A stretch of DNA of 21,479 nucleotides from Marine Group I thaumarchaeote (GCA_013390375.1 JACATA010000018.1:1-21479); one strand, 5' to 3'. Positions 3,242 to 18,635 are shown, counted from the first letter of the stretch. Program-made: numbers and translations. The notes: generated by a model not told the origin, from the letters alone.

Positions 3242-4765
3242 ATGCGCAATACAATTTTTATAATTTTATTTTCAATGATTCTTGTTAGTGGTAGCGTTCT
3301 TCCAGCAACATTTGCGGAACATTTGTCTGCTGGTTCTGGTATTGGTGCAGGTCTTGCTGGTGTTAATCTTCCTGGAGCCTGGTATGCGGGCGAAAATCTC
3401 AAAATTGGCGATTACTTCAAGTACAAATTGTGTCATGAGTCATACAAAGACTGCACAGAGTTTTGGTTTTCAATGTGGTTAGAAAAAGAAATACTTGATG
3501 GTCCTGAAGAAATGTTTCGTTTTCAAGTTCTAGTTGAAGACGGAAACAAGGTACTAAAAGGTCATATGGATGTAGGTAAAATTGCTCCCGAGCCTATAGG
3601 TGGTACTGTCAGCGATAATATTTTGCGGTATGCATCTGTATACAAATCATCAATAATATGGCTCTCTTCCTTTGCTACTGCAGACATTGATCAGCCTGGT
3701 AAGGGACCAAAGGCATTCTCCAAGGTTTCATGGGGCAAGATTGCAAATATTGGTGGTGAACAAATTGGGGCTATAGGAATAGAAACCATGACCGTTCCAG
3801 CAGGTGAATATGATACAGTTGTCATTGGTTGGAAGAGTGGCGGCATAACAAGTCACATTTACGTTGTTGATGAATTTCCCTTCCCAGTAAAGGCCAGCAC
3901 ATGGGTTCAGGTGACGGCAGGAATACCTCCGCAGGAATACAGATTTTCATTACATGAATACAAAGAAAATGTTTCTTCAAGTCCGTTTGCAGGTTTTACA
4001 GATACGGAAGAAGCAAAGAAGGATGTTGGTTGTATTACTAATTATAAACTGGTAAAAATTTTTGAAAATACAAATACAAACTCAATGGTTATTAACATAC
4101 AATATGGTCCAGAAAAACCTAGAATTGGATGTGACATTGAATGGGTTATAAATTTTAAGAAAGCATTTTCTACTGACCTGTGGGAAAACCAGGTGCATTA
4201 TGATATTTTAAAAGTTAATCTGATAGATGGCCAAACAATACCAATAGCTTCTGCTGCTGAAGATGAAGGATATGACAAGTTCTTTTCTACCTCAGGACAA
4301 GTGCACAGATATTGGCTTATGCAAGGAGATCCCGGATTGCAAAAATTTGCTGTAATTGTTTATGGCACAGGTCCGGCATACAGCGTACCCAATTCTGAAT
4401 CATTTGGTTATGTAATTCTTGATATTGATCTACAAAGCAAGAAACCAGTATCTGGTAGCCTAGAAACTCTTATTCCCACACAAACAGAACCTGAAATTTC
4501 TATTCCTAGCTGGATTAAAAATAATGCGGGATGGTGGGCTGATGGATTGATTGATGATGCTTCGTTTGTCTCCGGCATACAGTGGCTAATTTCAAATGGT
4601 GTGATAACTATACCACCTACTGAACAAGCAACAGAATCTGACAATGTAATTCCAAGTTGGATTAAGAACAATGCTGGATGGTGGTCTGATGGATCGATTC
4701 CTGATAATGCGTTTGTTTCTGGTCTTCAGTGGCTTATCTCAAACGGCATCATAACGATTTCGTAA
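3242..4765 (+). CDS. Secreted/surface hypothetical protein with two C-terminal 37-aa repeats
   Basis: N-terminal signal-like segment MRNTIFIILFSMILVSGSVLPATFA. TATA-like TTTAACTA (3211-3218) lies 23 nt upstream. The C-terminus carries a tandem IPSWIKNNAGWW.DG.I.D..FVSG.QWLISNG.ITI module. Confidence 0.8.
   Translation: MRNTIFIILFSMILVSGSVLPATFAEHLSAGSGIGAGLAGVNLPGAWYAGENLKIGDYFKYKLCHESYKDCTEFWFSMWLEKEILDGPEEMFRFQVLVEDGNKVLKGHMDVGKIAPEPIGGTVSDNILRYASVYKSSIIWLSSFATADIDQPGKGPKAFSKVSWGKIANIGGEQIGAIGIETMTVPAGEYDTVVIGWKSGGITSHIYVVDEFPFPVKASTWVQVTAGIPPQEYRFSLHEYKENVSSSPFAGFTDTEEAKKDVGCITNYKLVKIFENTNTNSMVINIQYGPEKPRIGCDIEWVINFKKAFSTDLWENQVHYDILKVNLIDGQTIPIASAAEDEGYDKFFSTSGQVHRYWLMQGDPGLQKFAVIVYGTGPAYSVPNSESFGYVILDIDLQSKKPVSGSLETLIPTQTEPEISIPSWIKNNAGWWADGLIDDASFVSGIQWLISNGVITIPPTEQATESDNVIPSWIKNNAGWWSDGSIPDNAFVSGLQWLISNGIITIS
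4502..4759 (+). repeat. Intragenic tandem duplication: two 111-nt (37-aa) units at 4502-4612 and 4649-4759
   Basis: IPSWIKNNAGWWADGLIDDASFVSGIQWLISNGVITI versus IPSWIKNNAGWWSDGSIPDNAFVSGLQWLISNGIITI. The protein units are about 80% identical, while the DNA differs at many synonymous sites. Confidence 0.9.
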
Positions 4766-6425: not shown

Positions 6426-6869
6426 TTAGATTTTATCAAGCAGCTGTTTCTTTTTTGCCTGAAATTCCTTATTGCTAATAATACCTGCCTTTTTCAACTC
6501 GCCTAGTTTTCTGATCAATTCCACATTATCTTCAGAAGATCTAATCATACGTTTTGCCTTTGTGATTTTTTTTGAGACTGTCTTTTTGGCTTGTGCTCTG
6601 ACTTGTTTACTCAGTTTAAGGCCTCTTATTTTTGCCATCTTGCCAATTTTTTGACCCTTCCTCTTAGCTTCGTCTACAGATTCCAAAAGCTTCTCTAAAA
6701 ACTCTTCATCATTTGGCTTGAAACGTCTCTGAAATTCTTTTATGACAAGAATAGGATATGGCGTCCATTCCACATCATTGTAAAATTGTTTGATGTGTTT
6801 ATCCGGAAGTGTCTTTAGATATTTGATAAGAAAGTCCTCAGATTTTTCGTCCACGGATGTATTTTTCAC
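6426..6869 (-). CDS. Hypothetical protein with a C-terminal SHOCT-like domain
   Basis: The C-terminus VELIRKLGELKKAGIISNKEFQAKKKQLL matches the SHOCT consensus (L..L..L...G.I...EF...K..LL), preceded by a Lys-rich linker. GTG start, 31 nt downstream of the rhodanese stop on the same strand, so the two may be co-transcribed. Confidence 0.55.
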   Translation of the reverse strand: MKNTSVDEKSEDFLIKYLKTLPDKHIKQFYNDVEWTPYPILVIKEFQRRFKPNDEEFLEKLLESVDEAKRKGQKIGKMAKIRGLKLSKQVRAQAKKTVSKKITKAKRMIRSSEDNVELIRKLGELKKAGIISNKEFQAKKKQLLDKI

Positions 6870-6900
6870 TCTAGTTATTAATAATGTTCTAAAACATCAC

Positions 6901-7197
6901 TCACGCCTTTTGCCAGGCCATGAATCCGCCTTCAAGGTTCTTTACATTAAATCCTGCCTTGGCTAATTCATCTGCTGCAATATTTCCGCGGTATCCAGAC
7001 CCACAAAAAGTACAAATCTTTTTTTCTTTGAGATCATCAATCTTGCCCTGTTTGATATTTCTTATAACAAGACCCAAGGGCATGTGAGTTGAGCCATCAA
7101 TCGTGCTATTGGCAAATTCATCTTGCTCTCTCACATCAATTACTACGAATTGGTCAAGTGTCTGCTTTAGCTCCGATGCACTGACTGTATCTGCCAT
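6901..7197 (-). CDS. Single-domain rhodanese-like sulfurtransferase
   Basis: VIDVREQDEF...G..H.P and the active-site loop CGSGYRG (CxxGxR), plus GGFMAWQ at the C-terminus. I prefer the ATG at 7197 (MADTVSASEL) to 7206, based on spacing from the shared AT-rich promoter. Confidence 0.85.
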   Translation of the reverse strand: MADTVSASELKQTLDQFVVIDVREQDEFANSTIDGSTHMPLGLVIRNIKQGKIDDLKEKKICTFCGSGYRGNIAADELAKAGFNVKNLEGGFMAWQKA

Positions 7198-7243
7198 AGG
7201 TAACATGGTTATACTTGATATATTAATTCATTATACTAGAAGT

Positions 7244-8302
7244 ATGGCAAAAGAAGCTATCCTTTATGAAAAAAGACCTAATGACAAGGTTTTGTGTACA
7301 GCGTGTGCTAGGTATTGTGAGATAGGGAAAGGACAGATTGGCCTTTGTGGTATAAGGGGAAATGAAAATGGGAAGCTTGATCTTTACGTTTATGGTAAAG
7401 TTATCGCAGGTCACGTTGACCCAATAGAAAAGAAACCTGTAATTCATTATAATCCTGGAAGCAAGATTTTCTCAATCGCAACCACCGGATGTAACTGGCT
7501 TTGCAAGTATTGTCAAAATTCAGACATCAGCCAGAGACGCAAAGTCGAGGGTGTTGATATGACACCAGAAGAGGTAGCAAATACTGCAGTTGAGTATGGT
7601 GCACAAGGGATAGCGTATACCTACAACCAGCCCTCAATATTCATCGAATTTGCTCGTGACTGTGGCATAGCTGCTAGAAAGAGGGGTCTCTTTAACATCT
7701 TTGTCTCAAATGGCTATGATACGCCAGAAGTAGTCAAGATGATGGATGAGTTCTTGGATTGTATCACTGTTGACTTTAAGGGAAGTGCAGAGCCAGACTT
7801 TACCAGAAAATTCATTGGGGTACCGGATCCCCAGCCAATATTTGACACCATTCTGGAAATCAGAGACAAGACAAAGATTCACACGGAGATTACAGACTTG
7901 ATAGTTCCACAGGTAGGTGACAACCTTGAGCATGCAAGAAAGCTTGCAAAGTTTGTCTATGATGAGTTAGGTCCGGAAACTGTAATTCACTTTTTGCGGT
8001 TCCATCCTGATTACAAGATGATGGAGTATCCATCTACGCCGGTCAAGACTTTGGAAAAGCATTATGAAATTGCAAAAAGCGAGGGACTTAAGTATGTATA
8101 CCTGGGAAACGTTCCGGGACATCCGTGGGAACACACCTACTGTGCAGGATGCAACGAAATTGTCGTGAAAAGATTTGGCTTTGACATACAGGAATGGCAT
8201 CTTGACAAAAACAACAAGTGCAAATTTTGTGGAAATCAGATACCAATTACAGGTCAGCTCGCCAAGGGCTACAAGCAGGAAAGATTTCAGTTTGTGGTAT
8301 AA
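7244..8302 (+). CDS. amrS: AmmeMemoRadiSam system radical SAM enzyme
   Basis: MAKEAILYEK...CTACARYCEIGKGQIGLCG (N-terminal Cys cluster), EKKPVIHYNPGSKIFSIATTGCNWLCKYCQN (CxxxCxxC) and the C-terminal CAGC...CKFC ribbon. The ORF-track N-terminal extension (7103-7243) is antisense to the rhodanese gene and I reject it. Confidence 0.85.
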   Translation: MAKEAILYEKRPNDKVLCTACARYCEIGKGQIGLCGIRGNENGKLDLYVYGKVIAGHVDPIEKKPVIHYNPGSKIFSIATTGCNWLCKYCQNSDISQRRKVEGVDMTPEEVANTAVEYGAQGIAYTYNQPSIFIEFARDCGIAARKRGLFNIFVSNGYDTPEVVKMMDEFLDCITVDFKGSAEPDFTRKFIGVPDPQPIFDTILEIRDKTKIHTEITDLIVPQVGDNLEHARKLAKFVYDELGPETVIHFLRFHPDYKMMEYPSTPVKTLEKHYEIAKSEGLKYVYLGNVPGHPWEHTYCAGCNEIVVKRFGFDIQEWHLDKNNKCKFCGNQIPITGQLAKGYKQERFQFVV

Positions 8303-8339
8303 TCTATCTGCTAGTGTATAATTTTCAAACTGGCGTTGA

Positions 8340-8347
8340 TTTTTTTT
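8340..8347 (+). terminator. Oligo-T (T8) terminator-like tract after amrS
   Basis: A run of 8 T starts 38 nt after the amrS stop. Confidence 0.35.
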
Positions 8348-8390
8348 CTTTATGGAATATTTCTTTTTAAAGATCATCAAAGATACTATA

Positions 8391-9341
8391 ATGTTGAAAT
8401 CTAATTCGGCAAATCTACTGTTGATACTTACCGCTGTCTCCCTATTTTTGATTACAAGCATTGTAACTGTTCAAGCAGAAATGAAGAATGGCGATAACTT
8501 GAACCTACACTATACTGTAGGTGATAAGGTTACGCTCTCATTTTCACCAGTTTTACCTGTAATTCACGTTGATCATCAAGTCGTGGTAGCAAAAGACGGT
8601 AATGAGATATGGAGTCAAACCTTCCATGATCATGACGGGAACTTGGAAATTGAAATTACACCTACTGACAGTTCATCGTTTTCAGTAACAGGCGGTGCAG
8701 ATATTGGTGGCAAAACCTCGACTGGCGCTTTTATGGTTTCTGGACCTGTTTTTAACGAAATGGGTACATATTCTGTCACGGGCACTATAACAGGAATAGA
8801 ATTCATTCCGTTACCAATTCCATTAGCAGACGAATTTAGTATCGAGATTGCTGGTAGTGAAGAGATGGACATGGGTGGCATGGAAATGAAGAGCATGGGA
8901 GAGCATCAAGTAAGTGCCATTTCTTCTGATGGTTCACTCATAGTTAACGTAGATACAAGTGACCCGGTTGCAGGAGAAATGATGTCAGTCACGGTCACAA
9001 TTACTACTGACAAGAAAGTTCACCAGACGAATGCAAACTATGACATTATAATCACCCAAGATGGAAAAACAGTTCTTTCAGAAACAGATGTGTATACAAC
9101 TCACGGCGAGGGTGAACACATGACTGATGTACTAGAATCTAGTAATCCAGTAGACGTTCAAGTCACCTTACAGGGAATCGGAAAGCCTGGTGAGCTCAAA
9201 ACTGGTGCAATGGGCGAAGCAATATCATTCCACGTAGTTCCAGAATTTGGAACAATTGCCATGATAGTATTGGCAGTGGCCGTAGTCAGCATCATAGCAA
9301 TCACTGCAAAGACAAAGATAGCCCTAATCCCAAAACTTTAG
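8391..9341 (+). CDS. PEFG-CTERM sorting-domain secreted protein, Met/His-rich, two related beta-rich domains
   Basis: Signal peptide MLKSNSANLLLILTAVSLFLITSIVTVQA from the ATG at 8391. The C-terminus VVPEFGTIAMIVLAVAVVSIIAITAKTK is the PEFG motif followed by a TM helix and a basic tail. Internal motifs are HVDHQVVVAKDGNEIWSQTFHDHDGN and NANYDIIITQDGKTVLSETDVYTTHGEGEH. Confidence 0.8.
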   Translation: MLKSNSANLLLILTAVSLFLITSIVTVQAEMKNGDNLNLHYTVGDKVTLSFSPVLPVIHVDHQVVVAKDGNEIWSQTFHDHDGNLEIEITPTDSSSFSVTGGADIGGKTSTGAFMVSGPVFNEMGTYSVTGTITGIEFIPLPIPLADEFSIEIAGSEEMDMGGMEMKSMGEHQVSAISSDGSLIVNVDTSDPVAGEMMSVTVTITTDKKVHQTNANYDIIITQDGKTVLSETDVYTTHGEGEHMTDVLESSNPVDVQVTLQGIGKPGELKTGAMGEAISFHVVPEFGTIAMIVLAVAVVSIIAITAKTKIALIPKL

Positions 9342-10174
9342 ACAAAAATTATAGAAGCATAGCCAACAACAGAACTTTTGTCACCAGAGACATCTCCGCT
9401 TGTGGCATACTTTAGCAATTTTCCCTCACTAGCACCCAGTTCCTTGCAGGCAATCATGGTGGATGCAATTGCACCAAACCCACATGCAGTTACATTCCTT
9501 TCATACAAAATCTTGTAAAACTCGTCAACATCTAATTTCAAGATGGGCTCAATTAGCGCAAGATCTTGTCTATGAGCAAACTCATTTTCTTCATAGTGTG
9601 TAAAGTCGGATGAGCCAATCAACAATGCGTCTTTTTTTTGTGCAAGTTTTGCAATTGCAGAGCCCACTTGTGTTGCTATTTTTTGTTCTTGGGTAATTAG
9701 CGAGATAGGGAGAATTTTCATTTCATTAGGAAATGTTTCCTGCAGCATAGGAATTTGAACTTCGATGCTATGTTCTTTTGAGTGAGAAAAAGAATCAAGT
9801 TCCAATATGCCCAAGTCTTCCCTTAATTCTAGTGCTGATTCCGAATCCACTTCAACCAAACCAAGGGGAGTTTTCCAACTGGAGTCAACCATTGACGCAA
9901 CGTTTTGACCAATTCCGTAATGATTGGGCCCAGTGATTATTGCCAGCTTGTTTGTTGATGATGAGATTGAATAAAACGAATGGCATGCAACAGGGCCAGA
10001 ATACACAAACCCAGCATGTGGGCATATCACTCCGTAAATCTTTTGATCAGAATCTGTAGGTGGTATTTTACCAGGACCTAGTTCGTGCAAAAAGCATTCA
10101 TGTATGAGATCTTTTAGCTCCTTTTCATCTCCCGGATAAAACGTTCCAGATACCGCAGGCGTTCTAACTTCCAT
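9338..10174 (-). CDS. amrB: AmmeMemoRadiSam system protein B (MEMO1-like)
   Basis: N-terminus RTPAVSGTFYPGD. The conserved putative metal-site residues are present: CPHAG, GPNHYG, SSDFTHY, TACGFG. The start ATG overlaps the amrA stop by 1 nt (TAATG). Confidence 0.85.
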   Translation of the reverse strand: MEVRTPAVSGTFYPGDEKELKDLIHECFLHELGPGKIPPTDSDQKIYGVICPHAGFVYSGPVACHSFYSISSSTNKLAIITGPNHYGIGQNVASMVDSSWKTPLGLVEVDSESALELREDLGILELDSFSHSKEHSIEVQIPMLQETFPNEMKILPISLITQEQKIATQVGSAIAKLAQKKDALLIGSSDFTHYEENEFAHRQDLALIEPILKLDVDEFYKILYERNVTACGFGAIASTMIACKELGASEGKLLKYATSGDVSGDKSSVVGYASIIFV

Positions 10175-10785
10175 TAGGTTTCCTCTCTTACAATCGCTCC
10201 ATTAGGCGTTTCTTCTTTGAATATAATACCCTCAAACTTTTCAATTTTTACGTCTTCATTTTTCCAAAAGTCCTTTAATAGCCCAGCTTTTTCACATGTG
10301 TGTTGCAGAAATTCTTCCACATTCCAACCATATTCGACAGGAACCTGTGGCAAAAGCAAGCCAGAGGAAAAAGAGTGTCTTACAATGAGACCGTCTCTTC
10401 CAACTTTAATTTTTGACAAATATTCCAACGGATCCGACACATCGATTTCAACTGGCGGTGTAAGTACAGTTACTTCAAACACAATGTCATCCAGTTCCTT
10501 TATTTTTACTGGTGAGAATCTTGGATCCTCAGTGGCAGCAGCGATGGCTCCATCTACTATTGCATGTGACAGTTTTTTTTCAGGCATGGGAAATCCAATG
10601 CAGCCACGTAACCCGTCAGGATTGTTTAAGGTAACAAACACACCGGAATTAAAAGAGAATTTTTCTTCAAGATCTGATTCCAATTTAATTCTATTACCAT
10701 TTGAAAGAAGTTCGGTAACTGCTCTCCTTGCAGCCTTGACCAAAAGAACTCCATCTGAATCAGATAATTGAATGTCCTTGGACAT
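10174..10785 (-). CDS. amrA: AmmeMemoRadiSam system protein A (AMMECR1 domain)
   Basis: GVFVTLNNPDGLRGCIGFPMP, ATEDPRFSPV and LLPQVPVEYGW are AMMECR1 hallmarks. Confidence 0.9.
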   Translation of the reverse strand: MSKDIQLSDSDGVLLVKAARRAVTELLSNGNRIKLESDLEEKFSFNSGVFVTLNNPDGLRGCIGFPMPEKKLSHAIVDGAIAAATEDPRFSPVKIKELDDIVFEVTVLTPPVEIDVSDPLEYLSKIKVGRDGLIVRHSFSSGLLLPQVPVEYGWNVEEFLQHTCEKAGLLKDFWKNEDVKIEKFEGIIFKEETPNGAIVREET

Positions 10786-10844: not shown

Positions 10845-11054
10845 ATGCCGCAACCAATTATGGCAATAGCCGCGTTGGCTGTTATCACTATCGCATTAAT
10901 AGGTCAGGCACGTGAAATGCGAAAGATACGTACAGGAACATATGGCGAAGACTCGATAGGTCACCCAAACATATTCTTGAATAAAAGAAATTTCAAATGG
11001 TATGCACTAATTGCCATTGGATTTGGTTTGGCATATACAGCACAGTTTCTTTAG
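10845..11054 (+). CDS. Small two-TM membrane protein (hypothetical)
   Basis: 69 aa with hydrophobic segments IMAIAALAVITIALIG and WYALIAIGFGLAYTAQFL. TATA-like ATTAAATT (10816-10823) lies 21 nt upstream. Confidence 0.5.
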   Translation: MPQPIMAIAALAVITIALIGQAREMRKIRTGTYGEDSIGHPNIFLNKRNFKWYALIAIGFGLAYTAQFL

Positions 11055-11381: not shown

Positions 11382-12524
11382 CTAAGACAATAATTTTAGA
11401 ATCTCATCAATCCTGCAATCTGTTCTGAATCCAGTTGGGTTTAATGAGGTTGGACTTGCCATAAAGCCAGCGTCTTGAAGTTTTTTAATCGCATTTTTCA
11501 TTTTCAATGGAGACTTTTGCATTTTTGATGCAATCTCATCAAGTGTATAGTACGTTGCCGGCATTTCTGATTCTAACGCACATTTTTCTAAGATTTTTCC
11601 ACACCGCTTATCCACTACAAATTTTGGAGCAATCTCTATCATATTCACAACGAATTTTTTTTCGAACAGTTGTCCTATCCATAGTGGACCTCCTATATCG
11701 AGCTTAGAATTGCAGATTTGGCAAATTTCCTCTTGTTTCATAACAGCTTTTCTATTTCCACAAGATTTGCAATGTATAATGTATCCCAGTTGTTCTTTTT
11801 GCCCTGGCTTGTTTAAAATTTTAAGATACACTCTGTAATAATGCATATCATGATGTACAAACTGTGGAATTATCTGAATCCCTAATCTTCCCGCAACAAA
11901 TTCCAAGCAGCCCAAAATTAGCCTAATTGCAATTTCATTAGAATATTCTGTTTTTATTGGTATGCCGTGGTATTTTCTTTGACATGATCTTTTTGATAAT
12001 CCATGTAAGACCTGCAAATCTGTAGCGGTAACTGATAGCATGCCACCATGCATTGTGGCCCTAATTGCACAGTCAAAATATTTTGTTGGTGAACCAAAAG
12101 GATCAACATCAACAATTGAACCTCTTTTGCCTTTCTTCGAATACGAACTGAAAAAGCGACATATCTCGTCCTCAGAAGTATCAAAGTTTGAAATTTCATT
12201 TAGTTTCACAGAATTTTGTGCAATGTTTAGTCCTTCAGAATTTACATCATTAGCTATAACCTTTTCCACATCGGAAATTTCATTTGCAACTCTCAGGGAT
12301 CTAGCACCAAGACCTGCTAACCCATCTAGAAATATTTTTGGTTTGTCAAAATTTTCCCAAAATGCAGAATAAGCTAAAATTGAAAAATCTCGATTAAGTT
12401 TTGCTACTGGATTGAAAAACGCAGGTTCCTTTGGCGGAACTTTCTCCTCAAGTGACTTTTCCGGAACAAGAATTTTAGTGGTACCTTCAGTTATTTCCAC
12501 CAGTTTTTCTTCTATTCTTTGCAA
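11382..12524 (-). CDS. trm1: tRNA (guanine26-N2)-dimethyltransferase Trm1
   Basis: ITEGTTKILVP...FFNPVAKLNRDFS...DGLAGLGARSLR (SAM-binding region), the CKSCG...CQIC zinc motif and a Trm1-type C-terminal domain. I prefer the TTG at 12522-12524 (380 aa). The ORF-track ATG at 12584 would abut or overlap the rnhB coding sequence and has no upstream promoter, whereas ATTATAGG (12547-12554, minus) lies 22 nt upstream of the TTG. Confidence 0.85.
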   Translation of the reverse strand: MQRIEEKLVEITEGTTKILVPEKSLEEKVPPKEPAFFNPVAKLNRDFSILAYSAFWENFDKPKIFLDGLAGLGARSLRVANEISDVEKVIANDVNSEGLNIAQNSVKLNEISNFDTSEDEICRFFSSYSKKGKRGSIVDVDPFGSPTKYFDCAIRATMHGGMLSVTATDLQVLHGLSKRSCQRKYHGIPIKTEYSNEIAIRLILGCLEFVAGRLGIQIIPQFVHHDMHYYRVYLKILNKPGQKEQLGYIIHCKSCGNRKAVMKQEEICQICNSKLDIGGPLWIGQLFEKKFVVNMIEIAPKFVVDKRCGKILEKCALESEMPATYYTLDEIASKMQKSPLKMKNAIKKLQDAGFMASPTSLNPTGFRTDCRIDEILKLLS

Positions 12525-12572
12525 TAGATTTCTTGAATTCTTTTTACCTATAATGGTTAATACTCTTAAAAA

Positions 12573-13211
12573 ATGAAAAATCATATGCGGGTCTGTGGTG
12601 TTGACGAAGCAGGAAGGGGTTCTATGTTGGGTCCTTTAGTTATTGCGGGCATCACCATAAATAGATCAAAAATTAATCTCTTGAAAAAACAGGGCATTCG
12701 TGATTCAAAGAAACTTTCTCCGGCAACAAGAGAACGTCTTTACAAGAAAATCATTAGTATAGTTGACGACTATTATGTGGTAAAAATTCCTCCACGCGTA
12801 ATTGACAAAAGCGTCTTAAGTCATTCTTTAAATCATCTGGAGGCAAAATATATGGCAAAAGTAATATCCAAACTTTCCCCATCAATCGCTTTTGTTGATT
12901 CATGTGATGTCAATTCCAAAAGATTTGGAAAAGAGATTTCAAAACTTACCTCAAACACAAAGATAAGATCATATCATCATGCTGATAGTAAATTTATCAC
13001 AGTTTCTGCCGCATCTATCCTTGCTAAAGTTTCTAGGGATAGGGCAATAACTAGACTGAAGAAGAAACATGATATTGGCAGCGGCTATCCATCAGACCCA
13101 AAAACCAAAGTCTTTGTGAAAAAATCAATACGAAGAAATCAGAACCTGACTTTTCTTCGAAAAAGTTGGAAGCCTGTACAAATCTTAATGAAGAAAAGAA
13201 AATTATCCTAA
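12573..13211 (+). CDS. rnhB: Ribonuclease HII
   Basis: VCGVDEAGRGSMLGPLVIAG, DSKKLS, VDSCD and SAASILAKVSRD...GSGYPSD are RNase HII motifs. The start is either the ATG at 12573 or at 12585. Confidence 0.9.
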   Translation: MKNHMRVCGVDEAGRGSMLGPLVIAGITINRSKINLLKKQGIRDSKKLSPATRERLYKKIISIVDDYYVVKIPPRVIDKSVLSHSLNHLEAKYMAKVISKLSPSIAFVDSCDVNSKRFGKEISKLTSNTKIRSYHHADSKFITVSAASILAKVSRDRAITRLKKKHDIGSGYPSDPKTKVFVKKSIRRNQNLTFLRKSWKPVQILMKKRKLS

Positions 13212-13874
13212 CAATGTTGCTATTACCATCGCATGATCCTTATCGTATGGATGCAAATCAATTGTCTGTTTGATTTCAAAAAATGATTCCAGTTTTTTTA
13301 TCTCATTTTTAATTACTCCTTTTGGGTCTTTTGTAACATCTATGCTTCTGGTTTTTATAACCAGAAGCAAGTAACCGCCAGATTTTAGATATAATTTACA
13401 GTTTTCAATAGCTATATCTGTTTGATCTGGTTGGGCAATGTCTACATATACGACATCAACTTTCTTATAAACCGAAAAAAACTCTTCTGGCCTTCTTGCA
13501 TCCTGAATTATTGGCACAATGTTTTTTCTATGTGATGCCACCCTGTCTAAAAAATCTCTAGCAACTCTAGTTGCATGCTCAATTCCAAAGATGGTTCCGC
13601 TTTGGCCGACAATGTCTGAAATATGACTAATTGTGGTGCCAGTTGATACTCCAAGGTACAACACATCAGTTTTTTGGTTAAAGGGAAAATCCTTCAATCC
13701 ATTCATTACCGCAGCAGCTAGTTTGCTTCTAAAAGGATTCCAAACTCTATATTCAACTCCTTTGGATTGTACAAGCTTTTCATTGTAAACCTGATTTCCA
13801 GGTACCAAGTTTTGAGTTGCTAATTTTTTCTCTCCCTCTACTTGAACCCAAAAAAATGCTTGTTTATCTACCAA
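13203..13874 (-). CDS. flpA: Fibrillarin-like rRNA/tRNA 2'-O-methyltransferase
   Basis: YRVWNPFRSKLAAAV, VLYLGVSTGTTISHISDIV, IVPIIQDARRP and VVYVDIAQPDQ. The TTG start overlaps the nop5 3' end by 11 nt, consistent with an operon. Confidence 0.9.
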   Translation of the reverse strand: MVDKQAFFWVQVEGEKKLATQNLVPGNQVYNEKLVQSKGVEYRVWNPFRSKLAAAVMNGLKDFPFNQKTDVLYLGVSTGTTISHISDIVGQSGTIFGIEHATRVARDFLDRVASHRKNIVPIIQDARRPEEFFSVYKKVDVVYVDIAQPDQTDIAIENCKLYLKSGGYLLLVIKTRSIDVTKDPKGVIKNEIKKLESFFEIKQTIDLHPYDKDHAMVIATLLG

Positions 13875-15063
13875 AACTCTTCCGTCTTCGTTTCATAAAT
13901 CGCCCTGATTTTTTTCTTTTTACTTTGGGCTCTGGTTTTAATTCTTTTATCACAGGTTTCTTGTATTTGTCTCCAATTTCCTTCACTCGAACGTTTAGTT
14001 TCTCCAAAAGTGTCTCGTTTAATCCCGCCTTAAAGAGATCAACTCTTGCAGCAATTGCTGCCTTTGCAGCCACTGCTCTTGCAATCTTTCCCCTTTGCCA
14101 TCTCGGAGCTGCATGAACTGCTGCATGCTGAAAAAGAATTCCATGCTTGGGTGGATTTGCGCCAGTTTTTAAAGAACGAAACAGCGCTTTTTCTGCTCCC
14201 AAAATTTGAATTGTGCTTGCCGGCATCCGCCCTAATCTATTCAAGCTTCCTGCATGTGCCAAAATTCTGGCTCCCACCGCAGTTCCAAGAATCGCAGAGA
14301 TATTTGGCGCTTCTTCTTTCATTTGTTCATCAACATGCTCTTCAATGTTTTTTCTTAACTCAAAAAGATTCAAAATCTGTTTGGCTAAAGATTGTACTAT
14401 GACAAAGTTTTTTTCCGAAATATTTCCTCCCCTGCTTTTTTCTTTTATTAAAGAAAGCATTTCGACTTTGTCCTTAGAAAATCCAGCCTTTTCAAAATCT
14501 TCTTTTGAAATATTTTCTCGCGTACCTGATAACACTATCTGTGAGTATCCGTTTATGCTGTCAATTAAATTATCAAGCTCTGGAAAGTGTAAACCGTACC
14601 ATTCTCGTAGCCTTGAACTAATGCTGTTTATTATCTTGTCAGTTTCATCCAGTGTGTTTATTGCTTGAATAATATGAAGGTCTGGACTCTGTGAAACTTC
14701 AGTTACTTTGGATGATGAAAGTTGTATGGCAAACTCACGTAGTTTTTCCATTGCGTCATTTTCATCGTTGGCAAATCCTGAATTTACCAAGAGTTTAGTC
14801 TTTGTTGATTGTATATTGTCTATTTGTTCAGCATCCATCAATTGTACATCAATTGATTTTTTTTTCAAAATATCCAGTAACCCATGATCATTCACAATTA
14901 CATTTTCACCATTTGCAAGAAATTTTCCAAGCTCGCTAAGTTTTGATTCATGTTTTTTAACTAAAACATATTCTTCGGCTGGATTTTCAAAAGGAAATGT
15001 TTTCAGACATTTCTTGTCGTCAAAGACTGCAATTCCTAACTCTGTAAGAATGGTTGAATACAT
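13864..15063 (-). CDS. nop5: Nop5 (Nop56/58) C/D box sRNP core protein
   Basis: LREWYGLHFPEL, GARILAHAGSLNRLGRMPASTIQILGAEKALFR, KHGILFQH and a basic KK-rich C-terminal tail. TTTTTAAT (15088-15095, minus) lies 24 nt upstream. Confidence 0.9.
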   Translation of the reverse strand: MYSTILTELGIAVFDDKKCLKTFPFENPAEEYVLVKKHESKLSELGKFLANGENVIVNDHGLLDILKKKSIDVQLMDAEQIDNIQSTKTKLLVNSGFANDENDAMEKLREFAIQLSSSKVTEVSQSPDLHIIQAINTLDETDKIINSISSRLREWYGLHFPELDNLIDSINGYSQIVLSGTRENISKEDFEKAGFSKDKVEMLSLIKEKSRGGNISEKNFVIVQSLAKQILNLFELRKNIEEHVDEQMKEEAPNISAILGTAVGARILAHAGSLNRLGRMPASTIQILGAEKALFRSLKTGANPPKHGILFQHAAVHAAPRWQRGKIARAVAAKAAIAARVDLFKAGLNETLLEKLNVRVKEIGDKYKKPVIKELKPEPKVKRKKSGRFMKRRRKSFGR

Positions 15064-16907: not shown

Positions 16908-18635
16908 ATGCCAAGTCCGAAGATTGTTTTAACCGCAGATCGAACACTAATGTCTTTATATCGTGGACTTTCGTTGGCTACGTTTTTTGGATGCGCACCT
17001 GCACTCGATCCAAATCGTGATAAAAGCAGTATTTGGTACAAAATTTTAGGAAATCAGGTAACACCAAAAATTTTGTTTGATTTTATCTGCAATTATGCGC
17101 CTCATACTAACGGCGTGGCAAAATTTGCTCCATATGGTTTACGCAAAGTAGAAGCTGGATTACTTCGTGACGGTTTCAAACGTGAGGACGTAGTAGTTGC
17201 TCACCCTGATCATATTGAAAAATTCATTGGACCTGAAACCGAGGTTGTTGGAACTCATGAAATGGATCCACTTGGAATGGGACCCGTAACCATGACGTTC
17301 ACCTATGGAAGAAGGCAGACGTCTTATGACGAGTTTTACTGTGCTGAACTCCACAGACGAATCAATGCGGCAAAGAAAAAGAATAACAGTCATGCAAAAG
17401 TTATTGCTGGTGCTTCCGGCACTTGGCAGTACAACTATGCGCCTGAAAAAATTGAAGAATATGGTTTGTATGCAATTTTAGAAGGGGAACTTGGTGGAAT
17501 TGCACCAGAGATAGACGGACATGCTGGTCGCTTCTTTAACTATCTAATAGACGGTCAGTTTGAAAATATGGATCCCTTCAGAAAAAGAAAGGATTTCAAA
17601 GTTGACATTAAAGAGTTTAAACATGATGACAAGACAATTCATGGAAGATTTATCAATTTTTGGTCTAGACCAGACCTAGATGAGATTCCAGAAATTGTTG
17701 AACCAACCATGCACGGTATGGTCGAGGTGATGCGTGGATGTGGAAGGGGTTGTAAGTTTTGTGATGTTACGTTAAGATCATTAAGGTACTATTCTCCTGA
17801 AAAAGTGGTAAAAGAAATTGAAGTGAACATAAAGAAGGGTGGCATTGATAGAGCGTGGGTTCACAGCGATGACATTTTTGTTTATGGAATGGATCCTACT
17901 ACCACAAAAAACATGGAGCCAAATCGTGATGCCCTTGAAGAATTATTTACTGTAATTATGTCTACTGGTGTTAAACATACCAATCCAACTCATGGAACAC
18001 TTGCAGGTGCAATTGCAGATGAGAAATTGATTCCTAACTTATCAAAGATCATCAATGCTAGTGCAGACAACCTGATAGGAATTCAATGTGGTTTGGAAAC
18101 TGGAAGCATAAGATTAATTGAAAAATATGCTGATAGGAAACTTGCTCCATACCAGCCAGAAGAATGGCATTGGGTTGTAAAGGAGGCAGTTAAAACTTTC
18201 AATGAGAATCATTGGATTCCGGCATTTACATTAATCATGGGCCTTGATAACGATGAAACACCAGAAGATGGTTGGGAAACAATCAGGCTCATTAACGAGC
18301 TTGAACGAGAGCAACCTGATTCTATGTTTACAGCCACTCCATTAACATTCATTCCAATAGGTTTACTTGAAAAATCTGAATTTTTTGATATAGGCAATGA
18401 TTCAGATCCAACACAACTTGGTGTAATGTACAAGACATGGCAACATAATTTTAAATATGGAATAAAGAAGTTTATGTCAAAAACTGGCCAGCGTGGTTTC
18501 ATTAGACGAAAAGCATTTAATGGTATAGCCAGAACTTTGGGCGGCGTTCCTCTTGGCTACATGGAAAGATATGCAAGACGAAAGGGTAGAGAGCATGAAA
18601 GAGTACTTGAAAAGATCAAGGCGCAATACTGGTAG
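16908..18635 (+). CDS. Radical SAM protein with an N-terminal Rossmann/B12-binding-like domain; specific function unknown
   Basis: VEVMRGCGRGCKFCDV (CxxxCxxC), GIQCGLETGS, and an N-terminal KIVLTADRTLM...YGLRKVEAGL...VVGTHEMDPLG layout typical of class-B-like rSAM enzymes. There are only 7 Cys in total. CATAAATA (16878-16885) lies 22 nt upstream. Confidence 0.8.
   Translation: MPSPKIVLTADRTLMSLYRGLSLATFFGCAPALDPNRDKSSIWYKILGNQVTPKILFDFICNYAPHTNGVAKFAPYGLRKVEAGLLRDGFKREDVVVAHPDHIEKFIGPETEVVGTHEMDPLGMGPVTMTFTYGRRQTSYDEFYCAELHRRINAAKKKNNSHAKVIAGASGTWQYNYAPEKIEEYGLYAILEGELGGIAPEIDGHAGRFFNYLIDGQFENMDPFRKRKDFKVDIKEFKHDDKTIHGRFINFWSRPDLDEIPEIVEPTMHGMVEVMRGCGRGCKFCDVTLRSLRYYSPEKVVKEIEVNIKKGGIDRAWVHSDDIFVYGMDPTTTKNMEPNRDALEELFTVIMSTGVKHTNPTHGTLAGAIADEKLIPNLSKIINASADNLIGIQCGLETGSIRLIEKYADRKLAPYQPEEWHWVVKEAVKTFNENHWIPAFTLIMGLDNDETPEDGWETIRLINELEREQPDSMFTATPLTFIPIGLLEKSEFFDIGNDSDPTQLGVMYKTWQHNFKYGIKKFMSKTGQRGFIRRKAFNGIARTLGGVPLGYMERYARRKGREHERVLEKIKAQYW

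Follow-up and report, generated by a model that had tools for sequence, protein, structure and literature searches.

A complete AmmeMemoRadiSam gene set with clade-specific neighbors in a Marine Group I thaumarchaeote

The AmmeMemoRadiSam system consists of the radical S-adenosylmethionine (SAM) enzyme AmrS, the MEMO-like protein AmrB and the AMMECR1-family protein AmrA. A complete, standard set of the three genes is found in a 21,479-nucleotide stretch of DNA from a Marine Group I thaumarchaeote (GCA_013390375.1, JACATA010000018.1:1-21479), referred to here as the window. Between positions 6426 and 10785 the set is split by a gene for a secreted protein with a PEFG-CTERM sorting tail, and amrS is flanked by genes for a rhodanese and a SHOCT-domain protein. 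An earlier interpretation of the same DNA made without database searches (the sequence-only reading) proposed that these neighbors tie the system to copper or sulfur handling, or that the PEFG protein is its client or partner, with chance adjacency as the fallback. The system is an already known one, catalogued but uncharacterized, in an untidy yet ordinary arrangement. Very probably, its unusual neighbors reflect lineage-specific rearrangement, an insertion slot between amrS and amrB, and domain shuffling within a family of PEFG-anchored plastocyanins.

All six open reading frames (ORFs) named in the sequence-only reading were found where it had placed them, and families were assigned with NCBIfam curated cut-offs and Pfam profile searches. 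The amrS gene (7244-8302, plus strand) encodes a protein of 352 residues that scores 312.3 bits against TIGR04337, where the cut-off is 220, and also matches PF04055. The product of amrB (9338-10174, minus strand; 278 residues) reaches 292.9 bits with TIGR04336 (cut-off 26), 298.6 with the MEMO1 model NF001987 (cut-off 295) and 266.6 with PF01875. For the 203-residue product of amrA (10174-10785, minus strand), the scores are 186.6 bits with TIGR04335 (cut-off 99), 214 with TIGR00296 and 178.5 with PF01871; its best match in the PDB is 1VAJ (PH0010; E = 1.9e-54). All three genes lie within 3.6 kb, and the trio is clustered in the nine contigs of the clade defined below and in Nitrosopumilus. 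The full set claimed earlier is thus present, as is the proposed coupling of amrA to amrB: the amrA stop and the amrB start overlap in TAATG, read directly from the sequence.

The motifs expected of each protein are in place. AmrS carries the CX3CX2C motif at C83/C87/C90, an N-terminal Cys4 motif (C18/C21/C25/C35) and a C-terminal CxxC...CxxC motif (C300/C303/C326/C329). In an alignment of 29 diverse homologs, whose representatives are 38-50% identical to the window protein, every one of these Cys columns is invariant except the last, which is conserved in at least 90%. The nearest characterized relatives are the glycyl-radical-enzyme activases and Cfr, and a search of the PDB returned no AmrS structure. 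AmrB contains the motifs PHAG (H53), GPNH (H85), SDFTH (D190, H193) and ACG (C231) noted by the sequence-only reading, with H53/H85/C231 forming the putative metal site. Residues H53, H85, D190 and H193 align with H49, H81, D189 and H192 of human MEMO1 (3BCZ, 7KQ8); the phmmer alignment ends at residue 197, and C231 is presumably the equivalent of MEMO1 C244. AmrA has the family's RGCIG motif.

Several homologs elsewhere show unusual architectures. P0239, with 1152 residues, naturally combines radical SAM, AMMECR1 and Memo domains in one chain, which supports the idea that the trio acts as one physical machine. In P0267 (1055 residues), DsbD_2, FMN_bind and Fer4_5 domains are fused to an AmrS-like radical SAM domain. 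Four AmrS homologs of 557-946 residues (P0184-P0187; 63-69% identity) carry an intein at about query residue 87/88, inside the CX3CX2C motif. Of these, P0184 and P0185 were scanned with Pfam; both match the Intein_splicing domain, and P0184 also contains a LAGLIDADG domain.

The interrupted cluster, and a layout that varies even among close relatives, could also be taken to mean that the trio is a non-functional remnant broken up by insertions. This explanation is rejected as extremely improbable. None of the three ORFs is truncated, all exceed the curated cut-offs, and their motifs are intact: CX3CX2C is kept in 79 of 80 AmrS relatives, ACG and SDFTH each in 21 of 21 AmrB relatives, and RGCIG in all 22 relatives of AmrA. 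Neither frameshifts nor an elevated ratio of nonsynonymous to synonymous substitutions were seen. Within the clade AmrS remains 92-99% identical while the flanking sequences diverge, which indicates purifying selection.

To place this arrangement among its relatives, amrS was scanned in one genome per species. The scan yielded 80 loci (L001-L080), all from Nitrosopumilaceae and with 77-99% protein identity, and neighborhood patterns were derived from tblastn searches with the window proteins and from clustering of neighboring ORFs. The closest relative, with 99% AmrS identity, is L001, a single-cell genome of Marine Group I. One further contig, L086, was reached through a rhodanese search. The window, L001-L006, L081 and L086 constitute a Marine Group I clade of Nitrosopumilaceae, with nine genomes or contigs and at least 85% amrS nucleotide identity. 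Among the relatives examined, the layout of the window, in which the SHOCT and rhodanese genes point away from amrS while amrB and amrA converge on it, occurs only in L001-L006 and L086. In Nitrosopumilus, amrB and amrA are divergent from amrS and directly adjacent to it; Nitrosopelagicus has a divergent amrA-amrS pair; and in most other genera (Nitrosotalea, Nitrosotenuis, Nitrosarchaeum and others) amrS stands alone within 8 kb. Neither the PEFG gene nor the rhodanese was found beside amr genes in Nitrosopumilus, Nitrosopelagicus or the other genera examined outside the clade. Synteny had been named beforehand as the check on the proposed copper or sulfur tie and on the idea of a PEFG client or partner. 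The two genes adjoin the amr genes in a single shallow clade and vary inside it, which speaks against these proposals and favors the fallback of chance adjacency.

A wider comparison used 80 diverse metagenomic amrS loci (L089-L168), 44-61% identical to a distant AmrS, with 548 ORFs in total. Among the 150 ORFs within two genes of amrS, which were scanned with Pfam, AMMECR1 (9) and Memo (6) are the commonest families. Spermidine-synthase-domain proteins and class-I methyltransferases come next, each with about five of the 150. No rhodanese, class-V aminotransferase or copper-binding family is among the Pfam families with at least two members in this set. Local hidden Markov models, which are narrow and of limited sensitivity, found no rhodanese, no SufS-like protein and no cupredoxin in the 548 ORFs. 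In Nitrosopumilaceae, by comparison, 12 cupredoxin matches occur in 81 amrS loci, at three or more unrelated positions. Cupredoxins are abundant in ammonia-oxidizing archaea, and the scattered matches near amrS fit that abundance.

Within the clade, the variation is concentrated where amrS and amrB meet. In L086 the junction is empty and the amrS and amrB stops overlap directly (GTCTAAACC) in an otherwise equivalent cluster, so the PEFG gene does appear to be an insert, as had been claimed. The number of genes between amrS and amrB is one in the window and in L004, two in L001 and L005, three in L003 and L006, and seven in L002. The extra gene of L001 encodes a GNAT acetyltransferase (L001:9068-9505, minus strand) on a 565-bp indel that corresponds to window positions 8323-8331 and is missing from the window. 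Among the seven of L002 are genes for a winged-helix regulator, an amine oxidase, a B12-binding protein and two secreted proteins. The PEFG gene is set apart from amrB by two to three genes in L002 and L003. As the comparison of these loci indicates, the 3'-3' junction of amrS and amrB is a flexible insertion slot within the clade.

The slot of the window is occupied by one gene on the plus strand (8391-9341). Its ORF can also be read from 8352, and the likely start is 8391, as in the NCBI annotation of the near-identical P0001. Two nucleotides are common to its stop codon TAG (9339-9341) and the amrB stop TAA (complement of 9338-9340), in agreement with the overlap reported earlier. Past the amrS stop and before the PEFG gene, a run of eight T residues (8340-8347, plus strand) could serve amrS as an archaeal oligo-T terminator, and a TATA-like sequence, TTTTTAAA, lies at about 8366-8374 (plus strand), upstream of the probable start. 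Together with the GNAT insertion in L001, these elements suggest that amrS and the PEFG gene belong to separate transcription units.

The encoded protein begins with a sequence that resembles a signal peptide by inspection (MLKSNSANLLLILTAVSLFLITSIVTVQA) and ends in the tail VVPEFGTIAMIVLAVAVVSIIAITAKTKIALIPKL, made up of the PEFG motif, a hydrophobic helix and a basic end, which matches TIGR04296 with 42.9 bits (cut-off 25) over residues 295-322 of 329. No archaeosortase gene is present within the 21-kb window. Numbered from 8352, the putative signal peptide is followed by a stalk domain A (residues 50-166), a Met-rich linker, a domain B and the PEFG-CTERM tail. The protein has no Pfam match, no Pfam or NCBIfam cupredoxin match, and no Cys. 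Its ectodomain is about twofold enriched in Met (4.7% versus 2.2% in the other window proteins) and His (4.0% versus 2.1%).

The origin of this composition becomes apparent from its relatives. A search with the ectodomain returned near-identical copies and then some 50 proteins of about 300 residues with a plastocyanin/azurin domain (PF00127). Domain A shares 57% identity with the C-terminal stalk of P0012-type proteins, which consist of a signal peptide, a cupredoxin domain, a Met/Glu linker, domain A and a PEFG tail. The linker and domain B (163-295) plus the tail are 85% identical to P0011, which has a signal peptide, a cupredoxin domain, a Met/His/Glu linker, domain B and a PEFG tail. The P0011 gene occupies the same slot, convergent with Memo and AMMECR1 (L081), and a domain-A-type plastocyanin gene lies in an unrelated neighborhood (L082). 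In L002-L006 the slot encodes plastocyanins that have a third type of stalk, an FCMVHPWM motif and PF00127 or amicyanin matches. With the slot protein of L004 the window protein has only the 41-residue tail in common (78% identity), and DNA homology starts at the PEFG codons. The window protein is therefore best described, from these alignments, as a mosaic in which two stalk domains are combined, both derived from the PEFG-anchored plastocyanins that abound in these archaea; it stands outside the amr system. An AlphaFold2 model built from an alignment of 33 sequences had a mean predicted local distance difference test score of 57.7; only domain A, a beta-sandwich, reached 70-90. Foldseek comparison of this model with the PDB gave generic Ig/FN3-like beta-sandwiches only, none with E at or below 0.001, and no specific metal-binding fold. 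A regular-expression scan for PEFG tails across about 1 Mb of loci found only the slot and L082; it was dropped as an estimate of background density, the loci being highly redundant.

A copper link between this protein, or the slot plastocyanins, and AmrB is judged very unlikely. It would make them copper donors or acceptors, redox partners, or clients modified by AmrS. The sequence-only reading pointed to soft-metal motifs in the PEFG protein and to copper binding by human MEMO1. The motifs do exist; what they are differs from what was supposed. MDMGGMEMKSMGEH is an interdomain linker inherited within the PEFG-plastocyanin family, FHDHDG is part of the FHxHDGNLE motif of domain A, where all 33 aligned sequences have H92 and at least 90% keep each of H72, H94 and D95, and THGEGEH is located in domain B. 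These conserved His and Asp residues and the Met-rich linkers could bind metal. A type-1 copper site, however, is impossible since the protein contains no Cys, and the cupredoxin domain itself is missing. MEMO1 does bind copper in vitro at H49/H81/C244, and AmrB keeps both His and presumably the Cys. The same site, however, binds iron in crystals and in vitro, and iron is considered its likely partner inside cells (PMC11081632), which undercuts the argument.

A PEFG-anchored member of the blue-copper family lies somewhere between amrS and amrB in eight of the nine clade genomes or contigs. The gene is nevertheless absent from L086 and separated from amrB in L002 and L003. Because it is convergent with amrBA it would not be co-transcribed with them, and the T8 run (in L001 also the GNAT gene) separates it from amrS. 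No such neighbor occurs in other Nitrosopumilaceae genera or in the diverse loci, and cupredoxin genes are simply dense in the Nitrosopumilaceae genomes. The PEFG protein is predicted to be extracellular, whereas the Amr proteins have no signal peptides. So far, PEFG-CTERM is known from ammonia-oxidizing archaea. The trio itself recurs across the 80 diverse loci, and the PEFG protein is thus not a general client of the system.

On the other side of amrS, a single-domain rhodanese is encoded on the minus strand (6901-7197). It has about 98 residues from the second Met, the likely start because orthologs begin MAD..., or 101 from position 7206. It scores 62.4 bits with PF00581 (cut-off 22.2), and its active-site loop CGSGYRG is intact, as had been noted. 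The spacing of about 46 nucleotides between rhodanese and amrS reported earlier holds for the ortholog-supported second ATG; from the first ATG the gap is 37 nucleotides. This divergent, AT-rich intergenic region (7198-7243) contains the conserved element GTTATACTTGATATATTAA, which is kept in the window, L001, L002, L006 and L086 and partly replaced in L003-L005, and it may hold shared or overlapping TATA boxes. The rhodanese adjoins amrS in those same five clade members and is absent from L003-L005, where the SHOCT gene abuts amrS at about 40 nucleotides. In the amrS tree the basal L006 and L086 both have the rhodanese, which suggests an ancestral pair in this clade and a single loss of the rhodanese, in L003-L005. 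The SHOCT-domain gene (6426-6869, minus strand; 147 residues, GTG start) follows the rhodanese after 31 nucleotides, as described previously. Its match to PF09851 is marginal (28.8 bits against a cut-off of 27, residues 119-144), and the gene was found only in L001-L006 and L086 among the relatives. Both the rhodanese and the SHOCT gene are clade-specific neighbors, dispensable at that position.

Orthologs of the rhodanese with about 66% identity occur in Nitrosopelagicus-type contigs; their neighbors there are DnaJ and EF-2 rather than amr genes, and the ortholog P0153 is present on 175 contigs. In L083 (5001-6260) and L087 (5001-6089), the gene after the rhodanese ortholog encodes another protein with a PEFG-CTERM tail (TIGR04296, 42.5 bits) and with Ig-like repeats; a rhodanese-PEFG adjacency thus recurs without any amr gene.

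Could the rhodanese deliver persulfide sulfur to AmrS, either to build its auxiliary Fe-S clusters or to take part in a reaction that inserts sulfur, from a bidirectional promoter shared with amrS? The divergent starts 46 nucleotides apart, the conserved AT-rich element, the intact active-site Cys, the ancestry of the pair within the clade and the two extra conserved Cys4 motifs of AmrS are all compatible with such a role. Moreover, the block that follows amrS in most Nitrosopumilaceae genera (L007:4540-6669 and equivalent positions in 39-46 of 80 loci) is conserved and comprises a cyclase/arylformamidase-like gene (PF04199) in convergent orientation, a small AsnC-like gene and a class-V aminotransferase gene of the SufS family. 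A SufS-family gene two genes downstream of amrS is found in 39 of the 80 other Nitrosopumilaceae loci. The sulfur link is nonetheless considered improbable. The rhodanese is cleanly lost in L003-L005 with amrS intact, and its 66%-identical orthologs reside away from any amr gene. The amrS loci of Nitrosopumilus and Nitrosopelagicus lack both a rhodanese and a SufS-like gene, and the narrow models found neither among the ORFs of the diverse loci. The SufS-like gene lies on the opposite strand and is paired with the cyclase/arylformamidase-like gene, which suggests a pathway of its own.

Some observations weigh against chance adjacency. Beside the slot occupied by a PEFG-anchored blue-copper-family gene in all but one clade member, the rhodanese-amrS pair is kept in five of the eight contigs that cover the position, both basal lineages included, and the recurring SufS-like gene might be a sign of a link to sulfur. 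It is uncertain how L086 and L006 branch at the base of the amrS tree, and whether the PEFG gene was inserted or was lost in L086 is not polarized with confidence. The persistence of both adjacencies inside the clade is explained by shared ancestry. Lineage-specific helpers in this deep-water clade, either a promoter-sharing rhodanese that feeds sulfur to AmrS or a PEFG blue-copper-family protein tied to AmrB, have only a slim chance of being real, and a genuine sulfur or copper tie in the clade is likewise improbable. If one of them did act as a helper, it would provide the first physiological handle, through sulfur or copper/redox, on AmmeMemoRadiSam chemistry.

With the ordinary trio and its shuffled neighbors as the favored explanation, a plausible course of events can be outlined. 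The amrA and amrB genes would be an operon with translational coupling, facing amrS as a separate, convergent unit; the rhodanese and SHOCT genes may share promoter DNA with amrS. AmrS, AmrA and AmrB are probably cytoplasmic and most likely assemble into one complex. As a radical SAM enzyme resembling pyruvate formate-lyase activase with two extra Cys4 motifs, AmrS would abstract a hydrogen atom upon SAM cleavage. AmrB, with its LigB/MEMO fold and a His/His/Cys site that most likely holds iron, would together with AmrA bind and process a housekeeping substrate, so that the complex could carry out a radical-SAM-initiated modification of that substrate. Reportedly, Burroughs and colleagues tied the system to nucleotide-base or isoprenoid modification in 2019. 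Literature searches on AmmeMemoRadiSam and on AMMECR1, Memo and radical SAM in combination found no functional characterization.

The slot in this strain holds one gene, for a surface protein that would be exported and anchored through its PEFG-CTERM tail. The resident slot gene was presumably that of a PEFG-anchored blue copper protein, which would have been altered by recombination within the PEFG-plastocyanin family. A signal peptide and domain A from one paralog type would have replaced the resident signal peptide and cupredoxin domain, while the linker, stalk domain B and PEFG tail of the resident gene would have been retained.

Other features of the window are less closely connected to the trio. 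A predicted two-helix membrane protein of 69 residues (10845-11054, plus strand), with no family match, is divergent from amrA and kept with it in L001, L002, L006, L081 and L086 at 68-96% identity by tblastn. Genes with roles in RNA processing are present on both sides: Trm1, RNase HII, fibrillarin and Nop5 to the right of amrA (11382-15063), and a tRNA-splicing endonuclease and tRNA-Glu(CTC) at the left end (287-1698). The proximity of Trm1 to amrA is not kept in Nitrosopumilus. A 507-residue secreted protein (3242-4765, plus strand) ends in two modules of about 40 residues (IPSWIKNNAGWW[AS]DG...FVSG[IL]QWLISNG[IV]ITI). This module has no Pfam or NCBIfam match and recurs in the slot proteins L002:4799-5485, L002:9589-10545 and L003:9120-10043. 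A 575-residue protein (16908-18635, plus strand) is a radical SAM protein with, otherwise, only a weak match to the B12-binding/radical SAM family TIGR04013 (50 bits, cut-off 251). Two ORFs, 7967-8461 (minus strand) and 10217-10771 (plus strand), were discarded as genes; they are antisense to amrS and amrA and lack family matches. Rfam detected only the tRNA-Glu (1623-1698) in the window and no RNA element in the amr region. Scans with bacterial promoter and terminator models, which are not applicable to archaea, gave counts no higher than shuffled controls.

Near-identical sequences are already public, and NCBI names the neighbor a PEFG-CTERM sorting-domain protein in the 99%-identical single-cell genome. 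The useful outcome is a negative one: the PEFG surface protein and the rhodanese should not serve as functional clues for AmmeMemoRadiSam. In addition, the PEFG-anchored plastocyanin family emerges as one that shuffles its ectodomains while keeping its sorting tail, and that can yield variants without a cupredoxin domain. The natural AmrS-AmrA-AmrB fusions and the intein-bearing amrS genes are further outcomes, the fusions being ready-made constructs for biochemistry.

Each part of the locus can be compared with a known system. The closest counterparts of the slot protein are the PEFG-anchored plastocyanin-like proteins with PF00127 and TIGR04296 (P0011, P0012 and L004:9152-10033). They have the same tail (78-95% identity), the same Met/Glu/His-rich linker and the same stalk types, and P0011 comes from the same slot. 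The window protein differs in that the cupredoxin domain is missing and two stalk domains are arranged in tandem; cupredoxin-less relatives with a single stalk also exist (P0057 and P0060, 200 residues). Like single-domain rhodaneses of the GlpE/PspE type (PF00581), the rhodanese consists of one domain of about 100 residues with its active-site Cys in a CxxxxR-type loop, but it falls below every NCBIfam equivalog cut-off, and no defined partner of it is known. Human MEMO1 (3BCZ; 7KQ8, Fe-bound; 7L5C, Cu-bound) belongs to the same fold family as AmrB (PF01875), and the conserved Cys of the AmrB ACG motif is located where C244 is expected. MEMO1 is a distant match (E = 1.6e-13 over residues 47-197), and AmrB differs from it in being accompanied by AmrS and AmrA. 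The system as a whole corresponds to AmmeMemoRadiSam as defined by TIGR04335, TIGR04336 and TIGR04337, the Memo-AMMECR1-radical SAM system of Burroughs et al. (2019, J Biol Chem 294:10211), as cited in PMC7159879. It has the three markers above their cut-offs, clustered genes, the CX3CX2C motif with two accessory Cys4 motifs, a putative MEMO-type His/His/Cys site and the AMMECR1 RGCIG motif. It differs only in layout, with amrS convergent with amrBA and one unrelated gene at their junction.

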